This document shows, piece after piece, positions 6,869 through 33,800 of a stretch of 64,000 nt of DNA. The stretch covers positions 2,336,001 through 2,400,000 of the forward strand of contig CBDEGZ010000003.1 of assembly GCA_965238175.1 (NCBI GenBank), given 5' to 3'. Each line of letters starts with the position of its first letter. Position 1 is the first letter of the stretch. Under the pieces are notes generated by a model. The model saw nothing but the letters and a program-made list of their open reading frames with translations, searched no databases and was not told the DNA's origin. Both the position numbers and the translations under genes were made by a program. This DNA is from Gammaproteobacteria bacterium. Its GTDB lineage: Bacteria > Pseudomonadota > Gammaproteobacteria > CAJXQU01.

Positions 6869-7237
6869 AGTTTCTTTCTTCCGACAAATATGGAAATGAT
6901 GTGTCGTTACCAATTGATTTTAAATAGATAATTACACATTAGTGAGCTATCTTTAATGTAGCTCAACCAGGAAATTATTTAAAATAATAGGCAAAGTTTA
7001 ATACACAATACTTGATTGCAAATTGTTTTTCTGACCCATTAGCTTGCAATCTATTATATTTGTTTATTTAAAGTAATTAGGAGGCCGCCCTAAGCAGATG
7101 TTTCCAATCAGTTTTTTTCTGAAATTGGCTTGGATTTTGCTTTAATTAACATATAAAAACGAAGCAGCATCATGTGTGAATTTTATAATAAAGCACAAGA
7201 TTGTTAGCGTAGGTTACTCAGGGGCTACGGTCAGGCA

Positions 7238-9676
7238 TTGAAACTACAAGCTAAAATTCTATTTATACTTTCACCCTTAGCGATAATTCCGTTGTTGTTA
7301 GTTGGCTGGATCACCTATTCTGAAATAACAACAAATAATCGGCAAAGTACTATAGAAATTCTTAAGCTTCTTAGCGAAGATACATCCGAGATCCTGAAAA
7401 TACGAATTAAAGAAACAGAAAGCGTTGCCAGTCTCTTAACAGAGTCTACATTGCTGAGCACATTCATTCGAAGCACTAATGTATATGAAAAGTATAATCA
7501 CCTGATGCCAAAAGTTTCAAGGCAATTTTCATACTATCTACAAATCTATCCGGAAATAGTTAATATTCGCTTAAGTGATTCTTCTGGTGACTTAATTTTA
7601 AACATACCAGAAGGTTCTAAACCTTCGATAAAAAGGAATAATTCGAAAAACACTAACTCTACGACCTCAGTATTCGAAGATCCCAATAAACAACCCTTAT
7701 ATCTTCACACTGTAGAACTCTTCAATGGAAACCATGACGCAAGGATAGGAGAATCTTTATTTGGATACCTTGATATCGTTTTGTCTATGTCTGTTATGGA
7801 TACTGCGATAGAAAAAGCCTTTAATGAAAAATACGGAACCATATTCTTCGTCGATAAGAGTGGGGATCGTATTCGCGATACCTTTGATTTGGGTTTAACT
7901 GGAAAATTATCATTACCGGATGTTAGCAATCTTATCCAACTAAAGAATGGTTTATTGCCCCAAGAAATTCAATTTGAAAGGGGTAAGGCCTATATACAAG
8001 GTTATAAAGTCGATCCTGATTTGTATATGTTTAGCTTACTTAATGATCAACAAATCATTGCTGATAGTAGTAGTTATTTCAAACATATAACTAGCATTGT
8101 AGGCATTAGTGTCTTCCTCTTTGTGATACTGAGTTTTCTTTCGATCAAATATCTATTGATCAAACCTGTTCAGAAATTAGGCTCTGCTGCACAAGAGATA
8201 GGTAGAGGTAATCTCGGCTTTAAACTCGATATCAACAGTAATGATGAATTGGGTGAACTATCAACCTCGTTAAAGGAAATGAGCCTGAATTTACGTCAAT
8301 CCAATGAGCAAATTCGTTATTTCGCCTACCATGATAGTTTAACAAAACTACCAAATCGATTGATGTTTGGAGAATATCTAGGCCATGCTTTGGCTCATGC
8401 GAAACGTCGTGATCAATCATTAGCTCTGATGTATCTTGATTTAGATGATTTTAAAGTGATTAATGACACACTAGGTCATCAAGCTGGTGACGCGGTTCTA
8501 AGAGAACTTTCTACCAGACTCTCAGACTGTTTACGAACAGAAGATTATTTAGGATATCCTGAAATCTCACGATCAGAAACTGAAACTGTAGCCCGACTTG
8601 GCGGTGATGAATTTATCATTTTCTTGCCTAATATCGACAATCCATATGAGGCGGCGACAGTGGCAAACCAAGTTCTTGAATCCATTGCAATTCCATTCCA
8701 TGTTGAAAATAGAGATCTACATGTCAGTGCCAGTATTGGCATTACAACTTTTCCTAAGGATGGCCAAGATGCTGAAACACTGATCAGAAATGCTGATATG
8801 GCAATGTATCATGCGAAGGAAAAAGGTAAAAACGCTTATAGCTATTATCAAGAGTCAATGAATATTGCAGCATTTGAGCGTTTAAATCTGCAAAATGAAC
8901 TACGTCAGGCACTCGCTAACGATGAGCTTGTTCTTTTTTACCAACCACAAGTAGATTTAAATAATGGCAACATTGTCAGTGTAGAAGCATTAATCCGTTG
9001 GCGACATCCTGTAAAAGGTTTAATTCGACCGGATCGATTTATTCCGATTGCTGAGCAGTCAGAACTCATTGTTCCTATTGGTGAATGGGTGTTAAGAGAG
9101 GCTTGTAAACAAGCGAAAATCTGGCATCAAGCTGGACATACCGATCTTTGCGTATCAGTAAATGTTTCTGCATCACAGCTGCACCGCCACGACTTAAAAG
9201 AAATTATTAACGAGACGCTAATCTCAAATAAATTACCTGCTGAAGCTCTTGAGATCGAATTAACAGAGACAACAATCAGTAACTCTGAAGAAATCGTGTT
9301 TGAAACATTAACCGCCATTAAATCGCTTGGTGTTCGTATTGCAATGGATGACTTTGGTACCGGCTATTCTTCATTAAGTTATCTTAATAAATTACCTATC
9401 GATAAGATCAAGGTTGATCGCAGTTTCGTACAAAAAATTACTTCAGAAACCACTCATGCACCAATTATCACAGCCATTCTAGCAATGGCTCACAGTCTGG
9501 ATTTACCTGTAACTGCAGAAGGTGTTGAGTTACAAGCTCAGGTTGATTTTCTCAAAGACAAAGGGTGCGGCTTAATTCAAGGCTATCTAATCAGCCATCC
9601 TGTTTCTACCGATGATATTTCGAAATTGCTTATGGAAAAAATATCTATTAAGGAAATTGTCAATCAGCCGATATAA
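7238..9676 (+). CDS. Membrane sensor with HAMP, GGDEF and EAL domains (c-di-GMP turnover)
   Basis: Two TM segments, HAMP, RLGGDEF, VEALIRW, MDDFGTGYSSL. Confidence 0.93.
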   Translation: MKLQAKILFILSPLAIIPLLLVGWITYSEITTNNRQSTIEILKLLSEDTSEILKIRIKETESVASLLTESTLLSTFIRSTNVYEKYNHLMPKVSRQFSYYLQIYPEIVNIRLSDSSGDLILNIPEGSKPSIKRNNSKNTNSTTSVFEDPNKQPLYLHTVELFNGNHDARIGESLFGYLDIVLSMSVMDTAIEKAFNEKYGTIFFVDKSGDRIRDTFDLGLTGKLSLPDVSNLIQLKNGLLPQEIQFERGKAYIQGYKVDPDLYMFSLLNDQQIIADSSSYFKHITSIVGISVFLFVILSFLSIKYLLIKPVQKLGSAAQEIGRGNLGFKLDINSNDELGELSTSLKEMSLNLRQSNEQIRYFAYHDSLTKLPNRLMFGEYLGHALAHAKRRDQSLALMYLDLDDFKVINDTLGHQAGDAVLRELSTRLSDCLRTEDYLGYPEISRSETETVARLGGDEFIIFLPNIDNPYEAATVANQVLESIAIPFHVENRDLHVSASIGITTFPKDGQDAETLIRNADMAMYHAKEKGKNAYSYYQESMNIAAFERLNLQNELRQALANDELVLFYQPQVDLNNGNIVSVEALIRWRHPVKGLIRPDRFIPIAEQSELIVPIGEWVLREACKQAKIWHQAGHTDLCVSVNVSASQLHRHDLKEIINETLISNKLPAEALEIELTETTISNSEEIVFETLTAIKSLGVRIAMDDFGTGYSSLSYLNKLPIDKIKVDRSFVQKITSETTHAPIITAILAMAHSLDLPVTAEGVELQAQVDFLKDKGCGLIQGYLISHPVSTDDISKLLMEKISIKEIVNQPI

Positions 9677-20895: not shown

Positions 20896-21831
20896 TCAGT
20901 TTCTCTTTTTACGACGTGTTTTCTTGTTTTCTTTTTCTAGGCGCTTAGCCGCTTTTTTAGCACGTATAATTTCAAGTTCAGCCAATTCTTTTTTCATATC
21001 GGTAGGCAATTCAAGACTAATATTGCCCAGTTCACCGGTTCTAAATTCGATCAAAAATAATCTCGAAACTTTTTCCAGATCAACACTTCCTCCAGAACGT
21101 AAGCAGCCTCGTTTTGATCCAATTAATTCTAGTAATTCAAGTTCCGTTCCAGGCACAGAATCAAGTTTATATCGCACAGCAAGAAGTTCTGGATAGTTTT
21201 TGATCAAATATTCTGCCAGAAAAAAAGCCACGGCTGGATAATCCATTGCCGTGTCTCGAACAGCACCCGTAGCGGCTAAGCGAAAACCACTATTTTTATT
21301 TTCAACATTCGGCCATAAAATGCCCGGCGTATCCAATAATAGAAAATCTTCTTCTAATTTGATCCGTTGTTGTCCTTTTGTAACCGCCGGTTCATTGCCG
21401 GTTTTTGCAATAGTTCGTCCAGCCAGTTTATTGATCAATGTTGATTTTCCGGCATTCGGTATTCCAACAATCATCGCTGTTATTCGGCGATTATTATTGT
21501 CGATTTTATCTCTAATTTTTTCGCGGATTATACTCGGTAATTTTTTTATTGTTTCAGGTTTTTTAGTCGTGATTGGAATCGCTGCTTCGGTATTTTTTTG
21601 TTGATCAAAATACACTATCCACTGTTTTGTGATTTCACTATCGGCAAGATCGATTTTGCTCAAAATTTTAATGCATGGCTTATCACCACGTAGATCGGCA
21701 AGCATTGGGTTTTCGCTACTAAAAGGAATTCGCGAATCAAGGATCTCTATGATCAAATCAACCTTAGGTAAGGATTCTTTGATCTCTTTTTTGGCCTTGT
21801 ACATATGGCCGGGATACCACTGGATTTGCAT
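20896..21831 (-). CDS. ylqF: Ribosome biogenesis GTPase YlqF/RbgA
   Basis: IQWYPGHM, DSRIPFSS, GIPNAGKSTLIN, DTPGILWP. Confidence 0.95.
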   Translation of the reverse strand: MQIQWYPGHMYKAKKEIKESLPKVDLIIEILDSRIPFSSENPMLADLRGDKPCIKILSKIDLADSEITKQWIVYFDQQKNTEAAIPITTKKPETIKKLPSIIREKIRDKIDNNNRRITAMIVGIPNAGKSTLINKLAGRTIAKTGNEPAVTKGQQRIKLEEDFLLLDTPGILWPNVENKNSGFRLAATGAVRDTAMDYPAVAFFLAEYLIKNYPELLAVRYKLDSVPGTELELLELIGSKRGCLRSGGSVDLEKVSRLFLIEFRTGELGNISLELPTDMKKELAELEIIRAKKAAKRLEKENKKTRRKKRN

Positions 21832-21912: not shown

Positions 21913-22378
21913 ATGTGATGGTCCCCTCCCCCTTTCCAGCATCTCGGTGCCATGATTGAGCTTTACAAACAATCAACTGGGAGAAGGCCACCATGATGAT
22001 TACAACAATTGGATTAGACATAGCAAAAAACGTATTTCATATTGTTTGCTATAATAAACAAGGGTGATTAATCAGCAAGAAAATACTAAAGCGAGCATAC
22101 GTCTTGTCATTTTTCCAATCACAACCAGCTTGCCTGGTGACAATAGAACCCTACGCAATTTTGCAGTATTGGGCCCGCGCGATACAACACCATGGACATC
22201 AAGTGAAGCTGCTACCTCCCAACATGTCCACGCGTATTGATAACAAGAATGATTATAACGATGCCCTGGCCATCGCCGTTGCCGCGAACCACCAAGTATA
22301 GGGCTGATAGTTCCGAGTGCGTATTTCAATGAAGTGGGGAATGAGGCACATGATCGTAACGGACGTAATATATCTGCG
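21913..22378 (+). pseudogene. Decayed IS110-family (IS1111-like) element
   Basis: Left end ATGGTCCCCTCCCC; ATG 21993 MMITTIGLDIAKNVFH, stop at 22065, YWARAI..GHQVKLLPP, KNDYNDALAIA, then after a deletion PSIGLIVPSAYFNEVGN..RNGRNISA. Confidence 0.85.
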
Positions 22379-22387
22379 TTATTTTTA

Positions 22388-22613
22388 TTATGTATTTTCT
22401 TCTTTGAGATCCATTAGATCTTTTTCAGTAACCCAGTCAGCGGTTTCAGATATGACCTCTTAACTAGCCAAGTAAATATATTTTTATATTTGGCTTTGGT
22501 TGAGAGGCATTCGGCCTCTCGTTTATCTGATCAAGTTAGATGGAAGCTTATTACAGCTTTTTGCACTTCTCCATTGCTGATTCAAGTTTCTTTATATCTT
22601 CGATAATACTCAT
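22388..22613 (-). pseudogene. Decayed terminal cassette ORF
   Basis: MSIIEDIKKLESAMEKCKKL* right after core GTTAGAT; later fragment ISETADWVTEKDLMDLKEENT*. Confidence 0.45.
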
Positions 22614-22625
22614 ATCTATCCGCGT

Positions 22626-22730
22626 ATCTAACATCCAGCTCACTGAGCAAATTTTTGATGGCGGCTTTTGTGTATGTTTCTGCGCAAAAGGTGACAGTGG
22701 AAGTTTGTCTGATGCAGCCGTTAGTTATGT
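22626..22730 (-). other. attC site (105 bp)
   Basis: On + strand ATCTAAC...GTTATGT with imperfect internal palindrome; 3 bp after the stop of the cassette ORF. Confidence 0.75.
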
Positions 22731-22733
22731 GTT

Positions 22734-23120
22734 TTAGTCTCCAAAGAATAGCACGGCTTTATTGCTCTCTTTGGCTTCTAAAACTATGGCTTTGAACTTG
22801 CTTAAGAAATTAGTAAATTCAGATTTTGACACCGTTTTGTATATTTCTTTTTTTTCGGGTTTAATTTGTGTGCCTACATGCTCTTTCCATATGTCGGTTT
22901 TCTTTTGAACTCTATCACCGACTTCACGCACCAATCTTTCTAAGTGCGCTAATTCATAAGGTTTAAAAATTGCGTAATCATATAATGTAACAAGTTTACC
23001 CGTTACTTTATGAAGCTTTTCGAATTCAGGACTGATAACCCAAAAGTAAACTTCTGGATCAAAGGCGAGCCTTACATGCATTGTTTCAAAGTCATCACCA
23101 ATTCCTATTGTAAGAGACAT
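22734..23120 (-). CDS. Cassette ORF, hypothetical protein
   Basis: Intact 128 aa between matching GTTATGT/ACATAAC cores; AGGA RBS. Confidence 0.8.
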   Translation of the reverse strand: MSLTIGIGDDFETMHVRLAFDPEVYFWVISPEFEKLHKVTGKLVTLYDYAIFKPYELAHLERLVREVGDRVQKKTDIWKEHVGTQIKPEKKEIYKTVSKSEFTNFLSKFKAIVLEAKESNKAVLFFGD

Positions 23121-23133
23121 AACCGATTCCTAT

Positions 23134-23259
23134 ACATAACGCCTTGCCAAGATGTGCGTAACGCAGTTCCCAAGCTTCTGAAATTCACCTTGTTCACTAA
23201 GCTCACCGCAAACCCAAAATGCTACGCGTTGTGCATCACTCTTAAGCAACTTTTTAGCA
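23134..23259 (-). other. attC site, VCR/VXR-like (126 bp), inverse core mutated
   Basis: ACATAACGCCTTGCCAAG...TAACGC...CTACGCGTTG...CTCTTAAGCAACTT-TTTAGCA; length and landmarks recall Vibrio cassette repeats. Confidence 0.8.
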
Positions 23260-23264
23260 GAATT

Positions 23265-23666
23265 TTACTTCTTATGCTTGTTGTATAAAGAGTCTATCGA
23301 ATAATTAAATAGCTCTTTAATATGTTGTTTGGCTTCTGGAATTGAAACTAAATCAAAGCTTACTGAAACCGAGTTACGGCCAAAGATATTTAAGAAACCT
23401 GGTTTAATAACGATCTCTAAATCTAACAACCCAGCATCCTTTTCTACAGGTATGAATTGATAGCTAGCGAATTTGCTATTGTAGTCACCTAACACAAAGA
23501 GTAAACCGCCGCCTTCATCAAGTTCTTCGAACAGCTCAAGTTCTTTAACCCAAGGATAATTATCAATTATTTCACAAGCTTCACGATGAAGATTGATATC
23601 CCGCTGATGATCAACAAGTTCAGTTCCACCTTCCCGATGTTGATAATGTGCTTTAATTAGATTCAC
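23265..23666 (-). CDS. Cassette ORF, hypothetical protein
   Basis: GAGGA RBS, GTG start, intact 133 aa; flanks ATTCTGCTAAC and TTTAGCAGAAT are complementary. Confidence 0.8.
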   Translation of the reverse strand: MNLIKAHYQHREGGTELVDHQRDINLHREACEIIDNYPWVKELELFEELDEGGGLLFVLGDYNSKFASYQFIPVEKDAGLLDLEIVIKPGFLNIFGRNSVSVSFDLVSIPEAKQHIKELFNYSIDSLYNKHKK

Positions 23667-23682
23667 TAAACTTTCCTCATTC

Positions 23683-23752
23683 TGCTAACGTCTGCCACAA
23701 CGAGTAACTGGAACGCAGCGTAAGTTAATCCAATTGCTGGCGCTTGTTATGT
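23683..23752 (-). other. attC site (70 bp)
   Basis: TGCTAAC..GCCA..TAACT-GGAACGCAGCGTA-AGTTA..TGGC..GTTATGT. Confidence 0.8.
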
Positions 23753-23787
23753 GTACTATCCGACTTCATAGTCCTCTCAATGCTATC

Positions 23788-23910
23788 AATTTATCAGTTC
23801 TGACGCTGGTATATAATCCCTGCAAATTTCTCGGTACCTACTATTCTTGTTCTGAATAGAAATTTCATATGAATACCAATCCTCTGGATTTTTTGTAATG
23901 GAGTCATAAG
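23788..23910 (-). pseudogene. 3' fragment of a cassette ORF
   Basis: YDSITKNPEDWYSYEISIQNKNSRYREICRDYIPASELIN* with no start, joined to a half attC. Confidence 0.45.
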
Positions 23911-23923
23911 AAACTTGTTATGT
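23908..23923 (-). other. attC remnant (inverse core and spacer only)
   Basis: Minus strand ACATAACAAGTTTCTT directly after the stop of 23927-24223. Confidence 0.6.
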
Positions 23924-23926
23924 GTT

Positions 23927-24223
23927 TTACTCATAGAATTTTCCAGCATGTAATATATGGGCTGCTCTTTTCCATGGGTTTGTAGGTTTCTCATAAAACT
24001 CAAGTCCACTAACTGAAGCCTGGCCCCACGCCAACGCTGCATCAAGATATGATACAATATCACCATTTTCCCAGCCATTAACTCCTGGGCTGTAAGGCGA
24101 ACTGGGATTTACTTTTTCTTTTTTTTCTTCATCGTTACGATCTTCCATTAGTGCTTCTACAAAATTCAGGAAGTCTTGCTCTGTTTCTACGTTATCAGCT
24201 AGTTGGTATAGATCTTTATTCAT
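23927..24223 (-). CDS. Cassette ORF, small acidic immunity-like protein
   Basis: GWEN..YLDAALAW..NPW...AGKFYE pattern; AGGA RBS. Confidence 0.8.
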   Translation of the reverse strand: MNKDLYQLADNVETEQDFLNFVEALMEDRNDEEKKEKVNPSSPYSPGVNGWENGDIVSYLDAALAWGQASVSGLEFYEKPTNPWKRAAHILHAGKFYE

Positions 24224-24239
24224 GTTTTCCTACGTAGAT

Positions 24240-24296
24240 ACATAATGCCGCAATTAATAGCAAGCGTAGCGCATCCATTACATTATTTTGTTATAT
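24240..24296 (-). other. attC site (57 bp, degenerate; core GTT changed to ATT)
   Basis: ACATAATGCCGC..TAAT..CAAGCGTAGCGCATCC..ATTA..TTGTTATAT. Confidence 0.65.
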
Positions 24297-24306
24297 TTTC
24301 ACTTAA

Positions 24307-24825
24307 TTAATAATTGATAAAAACAAGATCCTTATTTCTATCAGAAGTTATTTTGAAAATATAACTTATTTCATCTATATAATTAGTTTCTGCTGCATAA
24401 TCAGGAGCGTTTTTTAGAAAAAAATCTTTAGCTTCTTCTAATTGATTAAATTTAATACTATAAATATCAGGCCAATCATTTGAAGCGGGGATTGGGATGA
24501 ATGCTTTAAAATTCCCATCCGTTACTTCTGATAAGTATGATAAAAACTCTTCTCGTTCGATCTGCTCTCCAAAATCCCTACACATCATTTCATAGATATA
24601 ACCATAAATATAATGATGTGTTTCATCTCTTGTTATCGCGCCATTAATGATATCAGCTAGACAATCGCGATACACTTGGGGTTCTATTTCAAACCAATTT
24701 GCTCCTTCCTCAATATCACCCTTATGCTTAGCCATAAAATCATCTAAAAACTCTGTATTTTTACTTCCCCAAAGTTCTGCTATTTTTGAGGCATCTACTT
24801 GAAAAGCCATAGTGTTATAACTCAT
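24307..24825 (-). CDS. Cassette ORF, acidic hypothetical (immunity-like) protein
   Basis: MSY...VD...GSK...YGY.YE..C..FG...IPIP...DWP...DLVF.NY pattern; intact 172 aa. Confidence 0.8.
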   Translation of the reverse strand: MSYNTMAFQVDASKIAELWGSKNTEFLDDFMAKHKGDIEEGANWFEIEPQVYRDCLADIINGAITRDETHHYIYGYIYEMMCRDFGEQIEREEFLSYLSEVTDGNFKAFIPIPASNDWPDIYSIKFNQLEEAKDFFLKNAPDYAAETNYIDEISYIFKITSDRNKDLVFINY

Positions 24826-24865
24826 AAATCTTTCTCAACCTCATTATTTATTCAATGCGACTAAA

Positions 24866-24936
24866 ACATAATGCTGCGCTTTGTGGCTGTTGTGGAACGC
24901 AGCGAAACAACAATCCGAAACAGCACTTTGTTAGCA
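24866..24936 (-). other. attC site (71 bp; core GTT changed to ATT)
   Basis: ACATAATGCTGCGCTTTGTGG-CTGTTGT-GGAACGCAGCGAA-ACAACA-ATCCGAAACAGCACTTT-GTTAGCA. Confidence 0.8.
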
Positions 24937-24941
24937 GTGAA

Positions 24942-25346
24942 TTACGGGTAAAGTAACTTCAAGTTACATAAGCCGCCTTCAATTGTTTTAATATACTTTT
25001 CTCTCTTTGGCCATGGCTTAAGTTTGGCAGGTAGCCTACTTAACCAATGACGATTTGGGCCGTAAACCACCTGCCGTTTTTGAGTTAACTGTGTTGATGT
25101 AGGCATGTTCTTTTGACAAACGACATCAAGAAAATGCTCGACCTCTTCAACTGAGGCGAATTCAAGCTCAACTCCCAAAATATCAATAATAAGTCGAGGA
25201 AACCCCTTCGTTGGAATGACGCGAGGGAGAGCTGGTTCATATAGTGTTGCATGCGGCCAAGCGTCACCGTCCAAGTGTTTATGAACCCAGAAACTCAATG
25301 GACTAGGCCTGTACTCCTTAGTAAATTCAATTCTCCATTTCTTCAT
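24942..25346 (-). CDS. Cassette ORF, hypothetical protein (distant homologue of 20043-20393)
   Basis: ATG at 25346 (MKKWRIEF...); the longer track start lies inside the attC. Confidence 0.8.
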   Translation of the reverse strand: MKKWRIEFTKEYRPSPLSFWVHKHLDGDAWPHATLYEPALPRVIPTKGFPRLIIDILGVELEFASVEEVEHFLDVVCQKNMPTSTQLTQKRQVVYGPNRHWLSRLPAKLKPWPKREKYIKTIEGGLCNLKLLYP

Positions 25347-25357
25347 GATGAGTGTAC

Positions 25358-25424
25358 TACTAACGACAGAGATCAAGGATTTCTGAGCGAAGCGAAGAAA
25401 TTCCTCTGCAGCTCATAGTTAGAC
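25358..25424 (-). other. attC site (67 bp)
   Basis: CTAAC/GTTAG, GAG/CTC, AGGA/TCCT, TTTCT/AGAAA stems, loop GAGCGAAGCGA, extrahelical bases on one arm. Confidence 0.88.
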
Positions 25425-25432
25425 TTTGTTTT

Positions 25433-25777
25433 TTACCAAGGATCTATTTCAAAGTTTCTCATCCAACGCTCATAACCATCGAGCATTTTTTTTGATTCCT
25501 GTGGATCTAAAATACCATTATTTTCAACACTACTTAACTCTCCCCAATATTGTATTGAAGAAAGTAAATACCAAATCATGTCTACTCCGCTATTATAGTC
25601 CTCTTGAGATAGAGACGGAAATTTCTTTTTAACGTGATCTGGGATAGTTTCTTTTGCTGTTATTTCTTCAAATAAATCACTAAGGAATAAGCCTTGTTTT
25701 GATAACCCTAAACCTTGTTTTATTACACCACCTTCATCTGATTTTGATAACCAAGATACTTTAGATATTTTTTCCAT
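25433..25777 (-). CDS. First cassette ORF of array 2, hypothetical protein
   Basis: Intact 114 aa; AGGTGAGAC before ATG is both an RBS and a 1-mismatch match to the expected core GTTAGAC. Confidence 0.75.
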   Translation of the reverse strand: MEKISKVSWLSKSDEGGVIKQGLGLSKQGLFLSDLFEEITAKETIPDHVKKKFPSLSQEDYNSGVDMIWYLLSSIQYWGELSSVENNGILDPQESKKMLDGYERWMRNFEIDPW

Positions 25778-26257
25778 TGTCTCACCTGATGTTGAACAAT
25801 GTGCACATAGTGCTGATTTTACATGATAAGAAACATTAGTTAATTTCTTGTCATGTGTCTTTTTTTATGAGTAATCTTGTAATAGGGATAAAAGAGGTTA
25901 TTTACCACTTGGCATTAATATTTCCTTTTTTTATTTTAGTCTATCGCCGCAATAATTGAATAAATCCAAGCTCTGCATATTTATAATGCTCGCCTGTGGA
26001 ATTATCAATGACCCTAAAAACATTAAAAGACAATCAGTTAGATGAAAACACTGTGACTATTTTGTCCAACGGACTTCTTTTAGTGGCTATTAAAGTGGAG
26101 TTGCGTAGCAATAACAGGCTATTGGAAACAACTTCAACGCAAAGAGGCGCTAAAAGAAGTCTGCTGGATGGGTATTTCTTATCCCGAGTCAAGGTTATTT
26201 GATAGGCCAATAAATAAACTGATAACTAAAGCAAGAACGAACTACAATAGTTTCAGG

Positions 26258-26620
26258 TTATAAAACCTTTGGAATGTCTTCAGCTGCACGGGACGCATCC
26301 AATAGTACAAGGCCGAGTTTTGCATCAGGACGAGCGAGAACACATAAGACCGCCTCATTGCCTGCACCAACCATAATCACATAACCGAGACGTCCTTTTA
26401 CGATTACTTGATCAAGCTCACCACGTTTTAATTCTTTAGCTGTTCTCTCGCCAAGCACCAGCATTGCAGCCGCCATCGCACCAACCATTTCCTGTTCAAA
26501 ACTAGTTGGCAAGGCACTAGCAATCATCAACCCATCAATTGAGATCACAGCACAACCTTGAATATCGGTGGTGGAACCGTTTAGTTCGTTTAAGATTGAA
26601 ACAAGCATGTCTTCGCGCAT
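26258..26620 (-). CDS. Roadblock/LC7 (MglB-like) protein
   Basis: AVISIDGLMIAS, VGAMAAAML.LGERTA.EL.RGELDQVIVKG..GY, AKLGLVLLD. Confidence 0.93.
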   Translation of the reverse strand: MREDMLVSILNELNGSTTDIQGCAVISIDGLMIASALPTSFEQEMVGAMAAAMLVLGERTAKELKRGELDQVIVKGRLGYVIMVGAGNEAVLCVLARPDAKLGLVLLDASRAAEDIPKVL

Positions 26621-26759
26621 GGAAAACAAAACTCCAAATTACTATTCTGCGGACTATAGCGGCCACTTAAAAGAAATCTTCAACATATTGGTTGAAAAAA
26701 AGGACTGTATATTACAGTAGAGTAGACATTTGATCTGCTTTTGATCTGATTTTAGTGGG

Positions 26760-27794
26760 TTACAAGAAGGTACTCTCATTATGTTCAGACTCATCCATCA
26801 CTGGGTCCATTGAGTAGAATAATGATTGAAGTAACATCGACATGTCCTGATGGCTTGCCGGATTAACAGAAAAAATCGGTGCTTGCTGTAATTGCGGCAA
26901 CTCCAGTCGCCGAATATGCTTATGATAGTCTGATATTGCTGGGATTCTATATCGATCAATATGCGTGACACCTATCACGAGTTTTTTAGTATTTTCGAAT
27001 GAGATATTTGAAAAGAATATTTCCAAATCACGGAGTGGATCTTTACGTCGATTATCGATGAGCAAGATGATACCAAGCAGTTTATCTTGTAGTATGTCCA
27101 GTGCTGAATTAAGAGAATATTGTCTGTGAACTGAGTAGAAGCGCAGCTTTTCCGACTCTGAAAATTTTAAATTACTGTATTCCATTAGCATCAGATCACC
27201 ACTATCTTTTGTTGTCTCACTACCACATAAAGTCTTTAATGAAACCGTATTATCACTTGCGGCCGAGCCATAAATAATAATCTTTTGATCTTGATTTTCG
27301 AGATATTGTTTATCCTTTAATGACTGCCAAGATTGAGAAATATTTTCTGATTCAATCCGTTGGCCAGTGAACAAAGCATTTTCTTCAAACGTGGTTTTAA
27401 TCGTTTCCAGATATTTAGTAGTGGTTTGCGCTTCGGTGTATTCTGCAACCATATATCCAGTTCCATTTATGGAAAAACAGCGCATTACTTTTACACCTCT
27501 ATCACTTTGTGGCGGAAGTTTGGCAATTTGTTTAACTTCATCTAAGAACTTACTTAGGTTAATGACATATTGATCAGCTTTGTGTGGCTCTCTGACAGAT
27601 ACAGAAAAATCCGTTTCTCTCATTGCTAAGACATCAGGGAAAAATTCTTTAATGATCACTTGCCGTTCGATATTCAAATCCAGAGCCAGGTAAAAATATG
27701 AGTTACCTGAATAAGCAAGAAATTTCTCAATTTGGTATTCACTAAGCAAATATCCGACAGGTAACGAATTTATATCTTCTTGATCAGTCATCAA
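26760..27794 (-). CDS. Ser/Thr-kinase N-lobe fused to a degenerate MglA-like small GTPase
   Basis: LPVGYLL.EYQIEKFL..VIIKEFFP..FLDE..NGTGYMVAEY, then KIIIYG..LGIILLIDNRRKDPLRDL..VIGVTHID; no HRD/DFG or GKT motifs. Confidence 0.75.
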   Translation of the reverse strand: MMTDQEDINSLPVGYLLSEYQIEKFLAYSGNSYFYLALDLNIERQVIIKEFFPDVLAMRETDFSVSVREPHKADQYVINLSKFLDEVKQIAKLPPQSDRGVKVMRCFSINGTGYMVAEYTEAQTTTKYLETIKTTFEENALFTGQRIESENISQSWQSLKDKQYLENQDQKIIIYGSAASDNTVSLKTLCGSETTKDSGDLMLMEYSNLKFSESEKLRFYSVHRQYSLNSALDILQDKLLGIILLIDNRRKDPLRDLEIFFSNISFENTKKLVIGVTHIDRYRIPAISDYHKHIRRLELPQLQQAPIFSVNPASHQDMSMLLQSLFYSMDPVMDESEHNESTFL

Positions 27795-28935
27795 GATTTT
27801 GTCCTTTTAAATGTTTCAGTATCCGTAAATAAAACTCTCTTTGATTTTTTTCTGATTTTATAAAAGGTTTCTCACCCGATTGTATTTGTGTCGGTTTAAC
27901 CGCTTCCGTGTCTTGTCGCACCAATCCTAACGTTGATGCGGCGGTATAAAAATTAAAGACATCTTTCTGTGGAATATTTAAAACATCAATGGTCTCCATC
28001 AACGTCATCGGACAAGATACCCATAAGGCTGCAATGCGCATTACATTTGGGATAGGAGATAAACGCGGTAGATCTGGCCATGAGGTTAAAATAATTTTCT
28101 TATCAATATCGGTACCTGCAGGAACAGAACCTTCATAGGTCCAAAGTGCCAGATCCCATAGAAAAGAATCTATGTCGACAGGTTTCAGCCGTGTTTCTTG
28201 CCACTCGTCCAAATATTTTGAAAACTCTCTTTCTGTAAATACACGTTTCACTACATCAGATTCGTTCAAAAAATGTTTACAAATGTCTTGCAAACCTGCA
28301 GGAGTGAAATCGGTATTGATCCAATGTTCAGCAGGATCTATAAAAATACTTCCTTGATTTGTAAACTGTAATCTTATTCCTCGTCCCTCTGAATTTGCCT
28401 CGACCACGGCTCGTTTCACTTCGTCTATAAGATAACCCTGTTCAGAAAAAAATCTGACAACTTGACCTTGCTCTTCTATAGGCTGAGAAGGTTCAACCTT
28501 CTTTGTTTTCGGTGGTTCCGTTTTGGGGTACTTAATATGTGTCGAAAGAAATTGGTTCCAGGATGATTGTCTTTTTTGATCAACCCCATGTTTTTTCCGT
28601 GCAATACTTAGCGTAAGAACCAGATCATCAATAGAAATTGGTTTTTTCAGATAAAAATGCGCTGGGCTTCGGCTTCGGCTTCGGCTTCGTTGGGTTTCAT
28701 TAACTGAGAGAAAAATAGCTCTTTGATCAGGCTTGCCTTGTAACAAGGCATTCCATTCGTCTTCTGCACCATAATTATCTAGATCAACAACTGATAATGA
28801 TGCCTGGTCAAAATTTGCAATAGCATAATATCCAGGAGGTTCTTTAGCTAAAACCATTTCAATCGCATTACGATTTCGCTGATCTATTCCAATCAAATTG
28901 ATCAATATGGTCTCATTATCACCTGATGATGCCAT
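27784..28935 (-). CDS. Receiver-like N-terminal domain plus PATAN/DUF4388-like region and C-terminal helical domain
   Basis: SVVDLD...YLKKPISIDDL; FLWDLALWTYEG..P...WPDLPRL..IPNVMRIAALW...VFNFYTAA. Confidence 0.7.
   Translation of the reverse strand: MASSGDNETILINLIGIDQRNRNAIEMVLAKEPPGYYAIANFDQASLSVVDLDNYGAEDEWNALLQGKPDQRAIFLSVNETQRSRSRSRSPAHFYLKKPISIDDLVLTLSIARKKHGVDQKRQSSWNQFLSTHIKYPKTEPPKTKKVEPSQPIEEQGQVVRFFSEQGYLIDEVKRAVVEANSEGRGIRLQFTNQGSIFIDPAEHWINTDFTPAGLQDICKHFLNESDVVKRVFTEREFSKYLDEWQETRLKPVDIDSFLWDLALWTYEGSVPAGTDIDKKIILTSWPDLPRLSPIPNVMRIAALWVSCPMTLMETIDVLNIPQKDVFNFYTAASTLGLVRQDTEAVKPTQIQSGEKPFIKSEKNQREFYLRILKHLKGQNLDD
28665..28688. repeat. In-frame hexanucleotide repeat (GGCTTC)x4 encoding RSRSRSRS
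   Basis: Read directly from the sequence. Confidence 0.9.
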
Positions 28936-29181
28936 ACAGTAAGATCCTTAAAAGCTATGTTTTTATTAGTACGTTATAGTATATTTATTATAATTCTCTA
29001 TAAGTAGTTGTTGCATATGATTGTAACACAAGGTCTTTCTATTGAAAGCCTTTTTCACCTAAGATTAAACCTTGAACAATATTTTTCATTTCAATTCTAA
29101 CTCATACAACGATAAACTTTTTAGCGATTACGAATGTTTAGAGGTAGAATCCCCGGTTTAGTTCTTGCTTATGTTTCACCT

Positions 29182-32100
29182 ATGACACAATCACTCATGA
29201 TACGCGAAAATCGCCTCACTTCATTAAACCAATCACTTAAAGAAAGAATCTTAATTTTGGACGGTGCCATGGGCACCATGATCCAATCTTATAAGTTAGA
29301 AGAAGATGATTATCGTGGTGAACGATTTGCAAATCATCCTTGCGATCTAAAAGGTAATAATGATCTCTTATCACTTACCCGCCCCGAAATTATCAAGGCT
29401 ATTCACAATGCTTACTATGAAGCAGGCGCGGATATCGTCGAAACAAACACCTTTAATTCAACCTCCATTGCAATGGCAGATTATCAGCAAGAAGATCTGG
29501 TTTATGAATTGAACAAAACCGGTGCTGCGCTTGCGCGCGCGGTTGCAGATGGTTTAACCGAAAAGCAACCCTCGAAACCTCGCTATGTCGCCGGTGTACT
29601 TGGCCCAACAAATCGCACTTGTTCCATCTCGCCTGATGTAAATAATCCCGGTTATCGTAACGTTAAATATATGGAATTGGTTGAGGCATATACCGAAGCG
29701 ATTAAAGGTCTCGTCGATGGTGGCGCCGATATTTTGATGGTCGAAACAATCTTCGACACGCTAAATGCTAAAGCGGCTTTATTTGCGATTGATCAATTTT
29801 TTGATGACCACAATGTCAAATTACCGATCATGATCTCGGGAACTATCACCGATGCATCAGGGCGTACATTAACCGGTCAAACTACTGAGGCTTTTTATAA
29901 CTCACTACGACATTCAAAACCTCTTTCTATGGGCTTAAATTGTGCTCTAGGACCACAAGATCTTCGTCAATATGTTGAAGAACTTTCTACCGTTTCTGAA
30001 TCGTTGATCAGTGCCCACCCAAATGCTGGTCTTCCAAATGAATTTGGTGAATATGATCTGGAAGCCGATAGCATGGCCGACCATATTCGCGAATGGGCTG
30101 AATCTGGTTTATTAAATATTGTTGGTGGTTGTTGTGGAACATCCCCTGCACATATTAAAGCGATGGCGGATGCCGTTGAGGGACTGCCTCCAAGAGTTAT
30201 TCCAGATATTAAAGTCCATCAACGCTTAAGTGGACTAGAACCGTTTAACATCACACCGGAAGTTAATTTCGTTAATGTTGGTGAACGAACTAACGTTGCC
30301 GGTTCTCCCCTCTTCTTACGTCTGGTTAAAGAAGAAGAAAACCTGGATGCGGCGCTTGAAGTGGCACGCCAACAAGTCGAAAACGGCGCACAGATTATTG
30401 ATGTCTGCATGGATGAAGGCATGCTCGAATCCGAGCAGTTAATGGAAGAGTTTTTGAACCTGATCGCGTCTGAACCTGATATCAGTCGTGTACCCGTCAT
30501 GATCGATTCTTCTAAATGGTCGGTTATTGAATCAGGTTTGCGCTGTGTTCAAGGCAAATGTGTAGTCAACTCCATCAGCCTTAAAGAAGGCGAAGAGAAG
30601 TTTATTCAACACGCTAAATTAGTTCGTCGTTATGGTGCCGCTGTCGTTGTGATGGCCTTTGATGAAACAGGTCAGGCAGATACTACCGAGCGTCGTTTTG
30701 ATCTATGTAAACGCTCGTATGATATTTTGGTTAATCACGTTGGATTTCCTCCCGAAGATATTATTTTTGATCCCAATGTTCTCACGGTCGCAACTGGAAT
30801 GGCGGAACATAATAATTACGCAGTTTCGTTTTTTGAAGCGACGCGTTTAATTAAAGAACATTTACCGCATGCATTAATCAGCGGTGGTCTTAGTAATGTT
30901 TCATTCTCTTTTCGTGGCAACAATCCCGTACGTGAAGCGATGCACTCGGCATTTCTATATCACGGTATCCAAGCTGGTCTCGACATGGCAATTGTTAATG
31001 CTGGCCAATTAGGAATTTATGACGAGATCCCTAAAGATCTACTTACCTATATTGAAGATGTCTTGCTTAACCGTAGAGAAGATTCCACCGATCGAATGGT
31101 TGAATTTGCTGAGTCGGTTAAGGCTGGCCCCGGTAAAGAAAAAGTTGTTGATCACCAATGGCGAAAAGGATCCGTACAAGAACGGCTTACACATGCGCTA
31201 GTCAAAGGCATTGCCGAGTTTATAGAAGAAGATACGGAAGAAGCTCGCCAACAAGCTGAGAAACCATTACACGTAATCGAAGGGCCTCTAATGATCGGTA
31301 TGAACGTAGTTGGTGATTTGTTTGGTGCCGGCAAAATGTTCCTGCCACAAGTCGTGAAAAGTGCGCGCGTGATGAAAAAAGCTGTCGCCTATCTACTGCC
31401 TTATATAGAAGAAGAAAAAGGTGACGAAGTGATCAAAAGTAACGGCAAGATAATCATGGCAACTGTTAAAGGCGATGTACATGATATAGGTAAGAACATT
31501 GTGGGTGTTGTATTGCAATGTAATAACTTTGAAGTGGTTGATCTGGGTGTCATGGTTCCGGCCCAAGTGATTCTCGACAAAGCGAAAGAACTTAATGCCG
31601 ACATTATTGGCTTGAGTGGATTGATCACGCCTTCCTTAGATGAAATGGTTCACGTCGCTAAGGAAATGCAGCGTCAGGAATTTGCGCTACCATTAATGAT
31701 CGGTGGTGCAACCACTTCACGTGCGCATACTGCTGTGAAGATTGATCTCGGCTATGAACATCCTGTCGTCCATGTCAAAGATGCTTCCCGTGCAGTAGGC
31801 ATCTCAACACGCCTGCTTAATGTGGATTTAAAAACAGAACTCAGCAAAGAAATCACAGAAGAATATGACAAGGTTCGCGAACGTCACAAAGGTAAACAAG
31901 CCAAAACCAAATGGCTAACTCTAGAACAAGCGAGAGACAACCGTGTCAACATAGATTGGTCAAATTACACACCGCCTGTTCCAAAAAAATTGGGTACTCA
32001 TGTGTTTGAAGATTATCCATTAGAAGAGCTTAGAGAATTTATCGACTGGACGCCTTTTTTTATCGCTTGGGAACTGGCAGGTAGATACCCGCGCATCTTG

Positions 32101-32901
32101 GGCGATAAAATTGTCGGGGAAGAAGCGACCAAATTATTCAATGACGCACAGGCTATGCTGGATAAAATTATTGAGGAAAAATGGTTCACCGCCAACGGCG
32201 TGATCGGCCTCTTCCCAGCAAATACGACTGGTGACGATATAGAACTCTATACAGATGACACACGTAAGGGTGAACTCGCGATCATTCATTCGCTAAGACA
32301 ACAAACGCAAAAACCACCCGGCCAACCTAACTTTGCTCTGGCAGATTTTGTTGGGCCACACGAAGAGCATGTCAAAGATCACATCGGTGCTTTTGCAGTT
32401 GCCGCAGGTTTTGGAATGGAAGCAAAAATCGAAGAATTCGAAAAAGATCATGATGACTACAGCGCGATTATGCTCAAAGCTCTGGCTGATCGATTTGCTG
32501 AAGCTTTTGCAGAAAGAATACATCAACGTGTGCGTAAAGAATTCTGGGGATATGTCAGTGACGAAGGACTAGGAAATGACGATTTGATCAATGAAAAATA
32601 CCAGGGGATTCGACCTGCTCCTGGTTACCCAGCCTGCCCCGATCACACAGAAAAACCATTGCTTTGGGAACTGTTAGATGTAGAAAAAAATACCGGTATT
32701 ACCCTTACCGAACATCATGCAATGGTTCCTACAGCGGCCGTTAGCGGTTGGTACTTTTCACACCCTGATTCCAGATATTTTGGATTAAGTATGATCAATC
32801 GTGATCAGGTCGCAGATTATGCTCGCCGTAAAGGATTTGATGTCAAAGCAATGGAACGATGGTTAGCCCCTAATCTTGGATATGACGAGGCAGATGGATA
32901 G
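29182..32901 (+). CDS. metH: Cobalamin-dependent methionine synthase
   Basis: [48 protein letters not shown]. Confidence 0.98.
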
Positions 32902-32963: not shown

Positions 32964-33800
32964 CTAGTGTTTTATTTCTGGAGCAAACAATAAAGGATCA
33001 ACCATCGTGTTATTCAAAATCACACTCCAATGTAAATGTGGTCCTGTTACTCGTCCAGTCATACCTACCTTGCCGATAAAATCACCCACCGCTACGATAT
33101 CTCCTACTGCGGAATCAATTTCGCTCAAATGACAGTACATGGTGATCATCCCCCACCCATGATCAATAAATACCGTTTTACCATTGAAGAAGTAATCTCC
33201 CGTATTTATCACCTTTCCCGACGCTGCTGCCGCAATCGGCGTTCCTGTCGGCGATGTTATATCCAAACCACTATGCGGTCGCCGAGCTTGTTCATTAAAA
33301 AAACGTTTCAAACCAAAGGGACTACTAAAACGACCAGTAACAGGAAGTTTTAATTTCAATGAAGGATATCTATCAACACTCCAAAAAGATTTTGCAGATT
33401 TGATCTGTTTAGATTCTTTATTGATTCGGTTTAGATCTTGTTGATTGGGATCCACCTTTCGTTTGTTTTTGATCGTCAAATACTGTGCCTTATATTTTTT
33501 ATCCTTAACTGTGAATTTATGAACAACTTCTTGCTGGTCAATTCTTACTTTCAAACTATGTTCTCCGGGTGAGGCGGATAGCGGGATCCCAATGATAGCG
33601 ATCCAAACTTGATCTTTATGATCAGGAAGAACCATTACTTTTTGATCTTCATACCATGCTTGTGGTTGGGATTTCGATTTAATAGAAATGATTACAACAC
33701 CACCAGGAACACTGCTCGCGGTAAAAGCATGCAAATTACATGATATAAATATTGAGAGTAAAAAAAATCCGAAGGCATTTTTTGATAACAGTTGTTGCAT
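32964..33800 (-). CDS. M23 family metallopeptidase
   Basis: HSGLD, IDHG, YCHLS, TGPHLHW. Confidence 0.93.
   Translation of the reverse strand: MQQLLSKNAFGFFLLSIFISCNLHAFTASSVPGGVVIISIKSKSQPQAWYEDQKVMVLPDHKDQVWIAIIGIPLSASPGEHSLKVRIDQQEVVHKFTVKDKKYKAQYLTIKNKRKVDPNQQDLNRINKESKQIKSAKSFWSVDRYPSLKLKLPVTGRFSSPFGLKRFFNEQARRPHSGLDITSPTGTPIAAAASGKVINTGDYFFNGKTVFIDHGWGMITMYCHLSEIDSAVGDIVAVGDFIGKVGMTGRVTGPHLHWSVILNNTMVDPLLFAPEIKH

Follow-up and report, generated by a model that had tools for sequence, protein, structure and literature searches.

A three-gene operon in a gammaproteobacterial genome (Gammaproteobacteria bacterium, assembly GCA_965238175.1, contig CBDEGZ010000003.1) encodes, between a receiver-domain (REC) protein and a Roadblock/LC7 protein, a fusion in which the N-lobe of a Hanks-type protein kinase is joined to an eroded Ras-like GTPase domain (G domain). 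The operon occupies positions 26258-28935 of the window, by which we mean the whole 64,000-nucleotide stretch analysed (positions 2,336,001 to 2,400,000 of the contig), and its genes are numbered 1 (REC protein), 2 (fusion, P0001) and 3 (roadblock protein) in the order of transcription (Table 1). On sequence grounds, neither half of the fusion should be able to catalyse, and both parts are held by purifying selection. In gene content the operon matches the published Group 3 MglA system. The fusion derives from a larger family of proteins in which a Hanks kinase is joined to a GTPase, and is its most reduced form; this family shares the operon context and appears to be undescribed. As for its function, we give about even chances to a nucleotide-independent (constitutive) protein-protein adaptor within the REC/roadblock module.

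The fusion protein

The AlphaFold2 model of the fusion (34 aligned relatives) has a mean predicted local distance difference test score (pLDDT) of 82.4 and a predicted template modelling score of 0.55, with two confident domains. The closest solved relative of the first domain is PpkA, a Hanks kinase of type VI secretion: residues 6-129 match its Protein Data Bank (PDB) entry 5hnv in phmmer with an expectation value (E) of 2.8e-13, Foldseek places the N-lobe on 5x1r (E 1.1e-9, root-mean-square deviation (rmsd) 1.2 A), VIA-align gives Z 16.8 and an rmsd of 1.3 A over 117 residues at 30% identity, and an N-terminal NSLPxGY stretch is common to both proteins. However, PpkA is a complete active kinase, whereas the window fusion keeps the N-lobe and helix D only. 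A profile made from the kinase parts of 11 fusion relatives with active-looking motifs (300 positions) matches the fusion at positions 4-136 (E 2.3e-27) and nothing matches beyond; therefore, the HRD catalytic loop, DFG and the rest of the C-lobe are absent. The Gly-rich loop position reads LAYSGNSYFY and is eroded, and the beta-3 Lys (VIIKE) and the helix-C Glu (FLDEVK) are retained at the aligned positions, so that what is left is an N-lobe fold with this residue pair and not a complete bilobal Hanks kinase. The Pfam Pkinase model (PF00069) does not detect the fusion; its sole Pfam match, DUF6942, was under the cut-off (17.1 vs. 27 bits) and was treated as noise.

For the second domain, the Foldseek matches are Arf, Arl, Rab and MglA (3t1o, E 4.7e-6), and 47 of the 50 structure matches listed align essentially inside model residues 153-342. 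The best VIA-align match is an Arf protein (4ylg_B), with Z 14.5 and an rmsd of 3.2 A over 149 residues; it is followed by Rab, Rheb, RagD and FeoB, and MglA (5ymx_A) stands at Z 13.5. The predicted fold is generically Ras/Arf-like, with MglA tied with many others, and is not specifically MglA-like by structure. A profile search likewise finds Rab12 as its best PDB match (E 2e-7) and no specific sequence likeness to MglA. The initial annotation had called this half an MglA-like fold; a small-GTPase fold is indeed what the model predicts, and the particular likeness to MglA has to be dropped.

The nucleotide-binding motifs of this half are largely gone. G1 (Walker A) reads GSAASDNT in place of GxxxxGK[ST] (family form GPVGAGKTT), G2 reads DLMLMEYS in place of TTVAMDYG, G3 reads SVHRQ in place of GTPGQ, and G5 reads VNPA in place of VDAR, with LLIDNRRKDPLRDLE and the G4 motif GVTHID retained; the family form of G4 is T-H-x-D, without the Lys of NKxD. 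Among the hallmarks of a functional Ras-superfamily protein the fold is present, and the G1 Walker A, the G2 Thr and the G3 DxxG(Q) are missing. Pfam ATP_bind_1 (PF03029) matches the intact relatives, not the window fusion. Judging by these motifs, the G-like half is very probably unable to hold nucleotide phosphates. Translation and the kinase profile agree with every motif reading of the initial annotation (LAYSGNSYFY, the VIIK Lys and the absence of HRD and DFG in the kinase part; GSAASDNT, SVHRQ and the kept LLIDNRRKDPLRDLE and GVTHID in the other), and the anatomy it had proposed, a kinase N-lobe only plus an eroded Ras-like fold in a roadblock operon, is borne out by the models, the profile and the motif table, although the losses in G2 and G5 had been missed.

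Across the G-domain forms of the genus, G240, LLIDN, RK-DPL-DL, G-TH-D, FSV and the last helix are invariant, and these parts are candidate contact surfaces. The predicted complex of the G-like domain with two roadblock chains scored 0.01 (mark 0.32), which speaks neither for nor against binding.

Selection on the fusion

The orthologue in a second genome of the genus (G003) has 343 codons, as in the window, with no indel or stop between the two at a synonymous divergence (dS) of 0.79. The ratio of non-synonymous to synonymous rates (dN/dS) between these genomes is 0.166 for the fusion, 0.093 for the REC protein, 0.025 for the roadblock protein and 0.028 for the neighbouring putative metH. Counted by domain, the ratio of non-synonymous to synonymous differences per site (pN/pS) is 0.305 in the N-lobe (Fisher p 1.6e-9), 0.295 in the linker (p 4.5e-4) and 0.193 in the G-like half (p 4.0e-19). 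The eroded P-loop itself is nearly conserved (GSAASDNT in the window vs. GSAANDNT in G003), and identity to the metagenomic relatives P0003 and P0004 is 49-50% in the N-lobe and 39-42% in the G-like half.

As a control, we used a pair with intact P-loops (G006 and L005, with dS near saturation), for which dN/dS was 0.219 in the GTPase gene, 0.107 in the REC gene and 0.012 in the roadblock gene. Since this pair gives the same ranking, no extra relaxation is visible in the eroded fusion when it is set beside its intact relatives. An assembly artefact is ruled out by G003, where the contig (locus L003) carries the same gene without indel, and by intact sample contigs: 26258-28935 was found unbroken, with 0 differences, in contigs from two runs of one sample, which is possibly the window's own source. 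Among the outcomes that the initial annotation had named as undoing its reading were a fusion unique to this assembly and a neutral deletion scar. The first does not apply, as a second genome has the same 343-codon gene, and neither does the second, given the dN/dS of 0.166, the absence of indels and the strong Fisher p in both domains.

A wider family of kinase-G fusions

The homologue search covered 1.84 billion representative proteins and returned 748 at E up to 1e-10, most of which are PpkA-like kinases matching the N-lobe alone. Proteins of about 480-520 aa match both halves of the fusion, and Pfam reads them as Pkinase plus ATP_bind_1. Sixteen were examined, namely P0004, P0005, P0031 and 13 others. 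Among these 13, DFG is present in all and HRD in 12 (P0050 has HGD), VxIKE is present in 12/12 N-terminally complete fusions (P0047 is a record truncated at its N-terminus), and Walker A is lost in six (P0017, P0028, P0030, P0033, P0047 and P0066). Given these kinase-GTPase relatives, some of which stand in the same operon context, the fusion of the window does not stand alone.

The G protein was found in 60 of the 401 sampled genomes of the class (E up to 1e-10). Flanks were examined at 15 places with an open frame longer than the stand-alone G protein, with open reading frames (ORFs) scored by four component profiles. A kinase-G fusion lies directly after a gene 1 homologue in G016, G081 and G306, with a roadblock gene downstream in G016 and G306. 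The kinase motifs of the G081 fusion (L080 4001-5449) are active-looking (VALKE, HRDIKP, DFG), no Walker A, G3 or G4 is seen in it by pattern, and there is no roadblock gene within 4 kb downstream of it. The long frames in G091, G113, G154 and G239 were rejected as fusions, being overlapping-ORF effects, as were those in G079, G140, G293, G320 and G358, which are ordinary stand-alone G genes whose open frame runs on upstream.

At the remaining three of the 15 places the same G domain was met in other company. In G165 (L079 3014-4549) a single ORF of 511 aa holds both the REC/winged-helix protein and the G domain; in G252 (L078 3992-5512) a 506-aa protein joins a further 326-aa N-terminal part to the G domain; and in G131 (L074 3347-4558) a 403-aa protein has the G domain first and then a C-terminal extension.

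States across the genus

The seven sampled genomes of the window's order belong to one genus and all have a match, and in each of the six whose flanks were examined (the window genome G000 and G002-G006) the three genes stand in this order next to putative metH; the match in G001 is on a 3.2-kb contig. The state of the G gene differs from genome to genome. G005 carries a full-length fusion of 507 aa with a dead kinase (HADLTP for HRDIKP and GFC for DFG) and an intact Walker A. G002 carries an N-lobe fusion of 319 aa (P0013) whose P-loop reads GFARAGKST, and the N-lobe fusions of the window genome and G003 have the eroded P-loop. In G006 and G001 the G protein stands alone, with Walker A intact and G3 degenerate. 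In G004 (96% complete) the G gene is decayed: about 90 C-terminal codons are left at L029 5913-6334, in two frames and with stops, in a 420-nt gap between intact REC (378 aa) and roadblock (124 aa) genes. The form nearest to this remnant is the stand-alone P0010 type, at 52% identity, and no other G family member was found in G004 at E up to 0.01. Further forms come from metagenomes, namely P0003, which has 317 aa, an N-lobe and both GSSGAGKST and GTSGQ intact, and P0004/P0005 (503-504 aa; HGAIKP and VVIRE).

In a maximum-likelihood analysis of 35 G domains, with the root set by six stand-alone outgroups, all fused forms and all genus forms lie on one side (support 94/94). The genus forms and the long-branched P0028 (weak, 90/52) make up a 17-row clade (93/92), within which the genus stand-alone forms nest with the window pair and P0003 (97/94, starred). 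A tree with all 15 stand-alone G proteins as one clade, a group named post hoc, is rejected by the approximately unbiased test (log-likelihood lower by 82, p 3.6e-119).

The N-lobes are mutually homologous and share a breakpoint at profile position 136 (P0001, P0002 and P0013; cut to 117 in P0003), so stepwise loss is the most economical reading. We infer the order to be kinase death, deletion of the C-lobe, and then loss of the N-lobe or erosion of the P-loop, with loss of the whole gene in one lineage. The REC-protein tree has a polytomy at the base of the genus and very long outgroups and does not settle the order of events; the direction from full fusion to N-lobe form to stand-alone form is therefore taken from the G-domain tree and parsimony. 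The REC tree does place G002 beside G000 and G003 (83/81), in keeping with the C-lobe having been deleted once.

The REC and roadblock proteins

Gene 3 encodes a Roadblock/LC7 protein of the MglB type (Robl_LC7, E 3.1e-15, 56.1 bits vs. a cut-off of 23), and it is the only one of the three proteins that Pfam recognises; NCBIfam has zero matches for all three. It is 98% identical to its orthologue in G003, 80% to that in G004 and 58-60% to those of Leucothrix. Against the PDB, its profile matches 7f8m (E 9.7e-30), CvnB5 (3leq, E 3e-12) and MglB (6h5b, E 0.0055).

The AlphaFold2 model of gene 1 has a pLDDT of 76.3, and its receiver fold is matched by 3cfy_A in VIA-align (Z 12.8, rmsd 2.3 A over 114 residues); Foldseek finds the receiver fold at E 3.6e-4. 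D53, K98 and P99 are invariant among 19 gene 1 homologues, and D51/D53, S77 and K98-P99 lie at the strand ends where receivers have their phospho-acceptor Asp, Ser/Thr and Lys; a single acidic residue (D18) follows strand 1. The Pfam receiver model PF00072 matched 1 of the 19 family members (E 0.02). Among PDB sequences the family profile found only weak receiver matches, the best at E 0.031, and its C-terminal half found none. Two protein-atlas searches with residues 158-345 returned only unnamed clusters (0.91) or named clusters at 0.79, with no usable lead. We describe the protein as REC plus putatively winged-helix-like, the second label being drawn from the helix-strand pattern modelled at residues 281-341. 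The initial annotation had called it receiver-like/PATAN-like, of which the receiver part stands, whereas PATAN (DUF4388, PF14332) was rejected, since none of the 19 family members matched it at E up to 1; a genome-wide PF14332 search at E up to 10 found two places, neither of them at the operon.

In Leucothrix, a 441-aa neighbour protein is a full-length gene 1 homologue (hhalign probability 99.9, E 3.4e-33). In Leucothrix and a related metagenome-assembled genome (L006, L008, L009 and L010), an extra 218-219-aa gene lies between the G protein and roadblock genes, with a weak Robl_LC7 match (E 0.005). The module there is followed by two large ORFs with a YGP..GETLS N-terminal motif and preceded by a 231-242-aa ORF and a small opposite-strand ORF. 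We presume that the large ORFs resemble FimV-type proteins and the small one a bactofilin; in Pfam, one of the large ORFs (L008 7586-9328) had a weak FlxA match alone.

Comparison with known systems

Operons of this kind have been described. According to Wuichet and Sogaard-Andersen 2014 (PMC4316618), Group 3 systems comprise an MglA homologue, one or two MglB homologues and a protein of unknown function that has a REC-like N-terminus, a variable linker, a winged-helix-like C-terminus and no Pfam match; they are nearly confined to beta- and gamma-proteobacteria, and in their MglA the NKxD of G4 has no Lys and G5 takes the unusual form "DAR". In the window, the roadblock gene adjoins the G gene on the same strand, 139 nt downstream, and gene 1 has the REC fold, the variable linker, a putative winged helix by its model and no match in Pfam. 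The G4 GVTHID fits, the G5 of the window fusion (VNPA) does not, and the intact relatives show the Group 3 motifs (GVTHxD, VDAR or VDTR). The relatives with named records are Gammaproteobacteria, including Leucothrix. What sets the window G protein apart is the kinase N-lobe and the loss of G1, G2, G3 and G5.

In Table 1 of that census, the MglA subclade has 488 sequences, 449 of them small, and every sequence above 240 aa was left out, so that the kinase-fused forms fall outside its scope (PMC4316618). Our literature search, with most subscription journals and the supplements of PMC4316618 outside its scope, found no description of a fusion of a Hanks kinase with an MglA-type G domain. The initial annotation knew of no description of this architecture, and our search likewise found no published account of the fusion; the operon matches Group 3 (PMC4316618). 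Neither the kinase-fused version of the G protein nor its doubly degenerate N-lobe form seems to have been described before; the module itself is already published. Functional data on Group 3 systems are thin. For example, in Snodgrassella an orphan mglB allele is linked to gut colonisation, and altered pilus-dependent motility has been suggested (PMC11112851).

The MglA-MglB polarity switch of Myxococcus and Thermus (with RomR/RomX) also has a Ras-like G domain beside a roadblock protein, and a REC-domain protein in the system. The difference is that the window protein has no P-loop as needed for a GTP cycle, and that the roadblock profile reaches MglB at E 0.0055 only. The exchange factor in the two MglA groups studied is a REC-carrying partner (RomR with RomX) or a winged-helix-type DUF742 protein (MfpC). 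By analogy, a contact of the exchange-factor type could, for a dead G domain, only be structural. A genome-wide search with the DUF742 model (PF05331) gave no match at the operon.

The actinobacterial conservons (CvnA-D, Mfp) consist of a histidine-kinase-like protein, a roadblock protein, a DUF742 protein and a small GTPase. They resemble the operon in having a kinase-type component, a roadblock protein (the roadblock profile matches CvnB5) and a PF03029-type small GTPase, but here a Hanks-type kinase is fused to the G domain, where conservons have a separate histidine-kinase-like protein. In ROCO proteins (Roc GTPase-COR-kinase, e.g., LRRK2, with prokaryotic homologues), a G domain and a kinase occur in one polypeptide, and the full-length relatives of the window fusion are like them in logic only. 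The order is reversed here, with the kinase first, no COR domain is seen, and the G domain is MglA/CvnD-like.

A precedent for a dead G domain as a binding module is the class i pseudoGTPase domain of AAGAB, which binds a longin/roadblock-fold subunit without nucleotide (PMC12490416). The two have in common a GTPase fold without G motifs used, or possibly used, for protein binding and a partner of the longin/roadblock type. They differ in that AAGAB is eukaryotic and unrelated in sequence, and in that the loss of nucleotide binding was measured there (same source) and is deduced here from the motifs.

A possible adaptor and its alternatives

The G protein descends from a Hanks (PpkA-like) kinase-GTPase fusion and has lost the kinase C-lobe and four of the five nucleotide motifs of the G domain, so that a folded kinase N-lobe, a disordered linker and a Ras-like fold are left. 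As an adaptor, it would no longer switch on nucleotide and would phosphorylate nothing. Its G-like domain may dock the roadblock dimer and/or the REC protein via the strongly conserved surfaces of beta4-alpha3 (LLIDNRRKDPLRDLE), G4 and the C-terminal helix, and the N-lobe may offer another face for binding or dimerisation. The step that depends on the signal would in that case belong to the REC protein instead of a GTP cycle, and the G protein would modulate the module without being its centre, because the REC protein keeps plausible phospho-acceptors and because the REC and roadblock proteins survive the loss of the G protein in G004.

Several observations speak against the adaptor. The doubly eroded form is known from two genomes only, and in the G-domain tree the branch of the window fusion is long (0.92). 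The pair of beta-3 Lys and helix-C Glu is not found in every N-lobe form, P0013 having T and R. Since the G gene of G004 has decayed with the REC and roadblock genes intact, the G protein is dispensable in at least one lineage, and the fusion is the fastest-evolving of the three operon genes. In addition, the G4 T-H-x-D stays invariant (T276, H277 and D279 in 12/12 sequences of alignment A1, eroded forms included), which could mean that the base is still bound. This invariance is the main argument for a G-like domain that still binds nucleotide via a non-canonical pocket, as an atypical switch or as a permanently loaded, non-hydrolysing pseudoGTPase. The eroded form also retains the P-loop's first Gly, its Thr and the G3 Gln, and Group 2 and Group 3 MglA proteins have unusual G4 and G5 motifs yet are active, with GTPase activity recorded for CvnD9 (PMC4316618). 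Residual binding nevertheless seems unlikely to us, as the Walker A Gly-Lys has become Asp-Asn, which would put an acidic side chain at the phosphate site, G2 has lost its Thr, G3 its Gly and G5 its DAR, and no Pfam GTPase model matches the window fusion, unlike its intact relatives.

Another alternative is that the fusion gene is a remnant heading to loss, the core being REC plus roadblock and the residual constraint weak (e.g., on folding or on translational coupling with gene 1). The forms of the G gene in the genus do run from a full pseudokinase fusion through N-lobe fusions and stand-alone proteins to a decayed gene, G004 keeps its REC gene and its roadblock gene (the latter 80% identical to the window's) intact after the decay of the G gene, and the fusion has the top dN/dS of the operon. 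We consider a remnant rather improbable, however, since 343 codons show no indel or stop at dS 0.79 and a strong non-synonymous deficit in each domain, dN/dS is no higher than in G genes with intact P-loops (0.166 vs. 0.219), and the N-lobe stays 49-50% identical across deep splits of the genus. More doubtful is a decoy or antagonist, in which the dead G domain would block the roadblock dimer or the REC protein from a second small GTPase, or the N-lobe would pair with the N-lobe of an active Hanks kinase. The genome does encode a second G protein of 175 aa with intact Walker A, with no roadblock gene detected there, and at least six of its ORFs exceed the Pkinase cut-off, including one with likeness to the N-lobe (E 1.1e-13). 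Yet this second G protein matches the family profile weakly (E 2e-20 vs. 7.7e-71) and has conserved neighbours of its own.

Gene layout and surroundings

All three genes lie on the minus strand, head to tail, as the initial annotation had it; the 344 aa it gave for the overlapping fusion apply to the TTG start. The overlap between genes 1 and 2 is 8 nt from the ATG and 11 nt from the TTG. For gene 3, the likely start is the ATG, as orthologues begin MREDML and a GGAG lies 11 nt upstream.

Table 1. Features of the operon and its neighbours, in window positions.
Feature	Positions	Strand	Residues or length	Basis or remark
Gene 1, receiver-domain protein	27784-28935	minus	383 aa	ORF
Gene 1, receiver (REC) domain			residues ~8-125	VIA-align, Foldseek
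Gene 1, variable low-confidence linker			residues 119-157	alignment and model
Gene 1, conserved alpha/beta region plus helix-turn-helix-like (HTH-like) C-terminal domain			residues ~160-343; HTH-like part 281-341	model
Gene 1, C-terminal helix			residues 362-377	model
Gene 2, fusion (P0001)	26760-27791	minus	343 aa	database form, ATG at 27791
Gene 2, alternative TTG start one codon upstream	26760-27794	minus	344 aa	ORF finder
Gene 2, PpkA-like Hanks-kinase N-lobe plus helix D	27372-27776	minus	residues 6-140	phmmer, Foldseek, VIA-align, profile
Gene 2, flexible linker, predicted disordered	27297-27371	minus	residues ~141-165	pLDDT <50 at residues 139-165
Gene 2, predicted Ras-like small-GTPase fold	26781-27296	minus	residues ~166-337	Foldseek, VIA-align, motif table
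Gene 2, eroded Walker A/G1 GSAASDNT	27246-27269	minus		translation
Gene 2, retained G4-type motif GVTHID	26955-26972	minus		translation
Gene 3, Roadblock/LC7 (MglB-type)	26258-26620	minus	120 aa	ATG at 26620
Gene 3, alternative TTG start	26258-26629	minus	123 aa	ORF finder
Putative metH	29134-32901	plus	1255 aa	ORF divergent from gene 1, upstream of it
M23 peptidase	32964-33800	minus		PF01551, E 2.5e-29; after putative metH

We take the 1255-aa ORF to be metH, given its sequence and its conservation beside the operon in the genus. An Rfam scan of 24000-31000 found no family, promoter-like and terminator-like sites were at chance (10 vs. 11.3 expected and 3 vs. 2.5 expected, respectively), and antisense small ORFs of 61-68 aa in the operon region were without support. 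The repeats around the operon are short two-copy matches. A look for RNA runs containing the operon stretch came back empty. Between the roadblock gene and a 311-aa ORF (20896-21831), six small minus-strand ORFs (98-172 aa) lie at 22000-26200, one of which matches DUF7660 (E 3.5e-8), one DUF7691 (E 4.7e-18) and four nothing. Because a 311-aa ORF directly follows the roadblock gene in G003, this run looks like an inserted island.

Outside the window, the second small GTPase is encoded at G000:C3:1243382-1243873 (L030 5965-6492); it has 175 aa with GTYGAGKT intact, and Pfam reads it as ATP_bind_1 (E 1.2e-16) and Arf (E 4.4e-11). Its neighbours are a 246-aa protein without Pfam match (L030 6479-7219) and a 476-aa protein with Sel1 repeats and SPOR (7228-8658). 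The trio is also present in G005 and G006, and no match for the second GTPase was found in G004. Comparing the gene 1 family by hhalign with the 246-aa protein and with the Leucothrix 219-aa protein gave no relationship. In the window genome (G000:C3), six places are over the Pkinase cut-off; that at 2664271-2664855 has an internal TAA, and a 601-aa kinase at 2775663-2776460 adjoins a GAF-GGDEF gene.

What the series of forms may mean

Bacterial small-GTPase modules are understood almost only from Myxococcus MglA-MglB and the conservons, while Group 3 is widespread and has few functional data. Its output could be motility, polarity or transcription. In several lineages the G protein is fused to a Hanks kinase, always beside a REC gene, which suggests that Ser/Thr phosphorylation is linked directly to a G-protein module. 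The repeated loss of Walker A, and the loss of the whole G protein in one genome, with REC and roadblock highly conserved, call into question whether the GTP cycle is the heart of the module.

To hypothesize more widely, and only tentatively, the core of Group 3 might be the REC/winged-helix and roadblock proteins, with the G domain an exchangeable docking piece to which some Gammaproteobacteria have an active Hanks kinase fused (an undescribed arrangement with a ROCO/LRRK2-like logic and Walker A often missing); in that case the window protein, as pseudokinase N-lobe plus pseudoGTPase, might be the first double pseudoenzyme from bacteria that selection maintains as an adaptor independent of nucleotide, with one genus preserving all the states. 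The finding itself brings no new mechanism, but it offers a natural series of domain states for dissecting the roles of the G domain and the kinase. Within one genus there are natural variants with the full fusion, the N-lobe only, the G domain only, a dead G domain or none, which can be compared for the binding roles of the G domain and the N-lobe.

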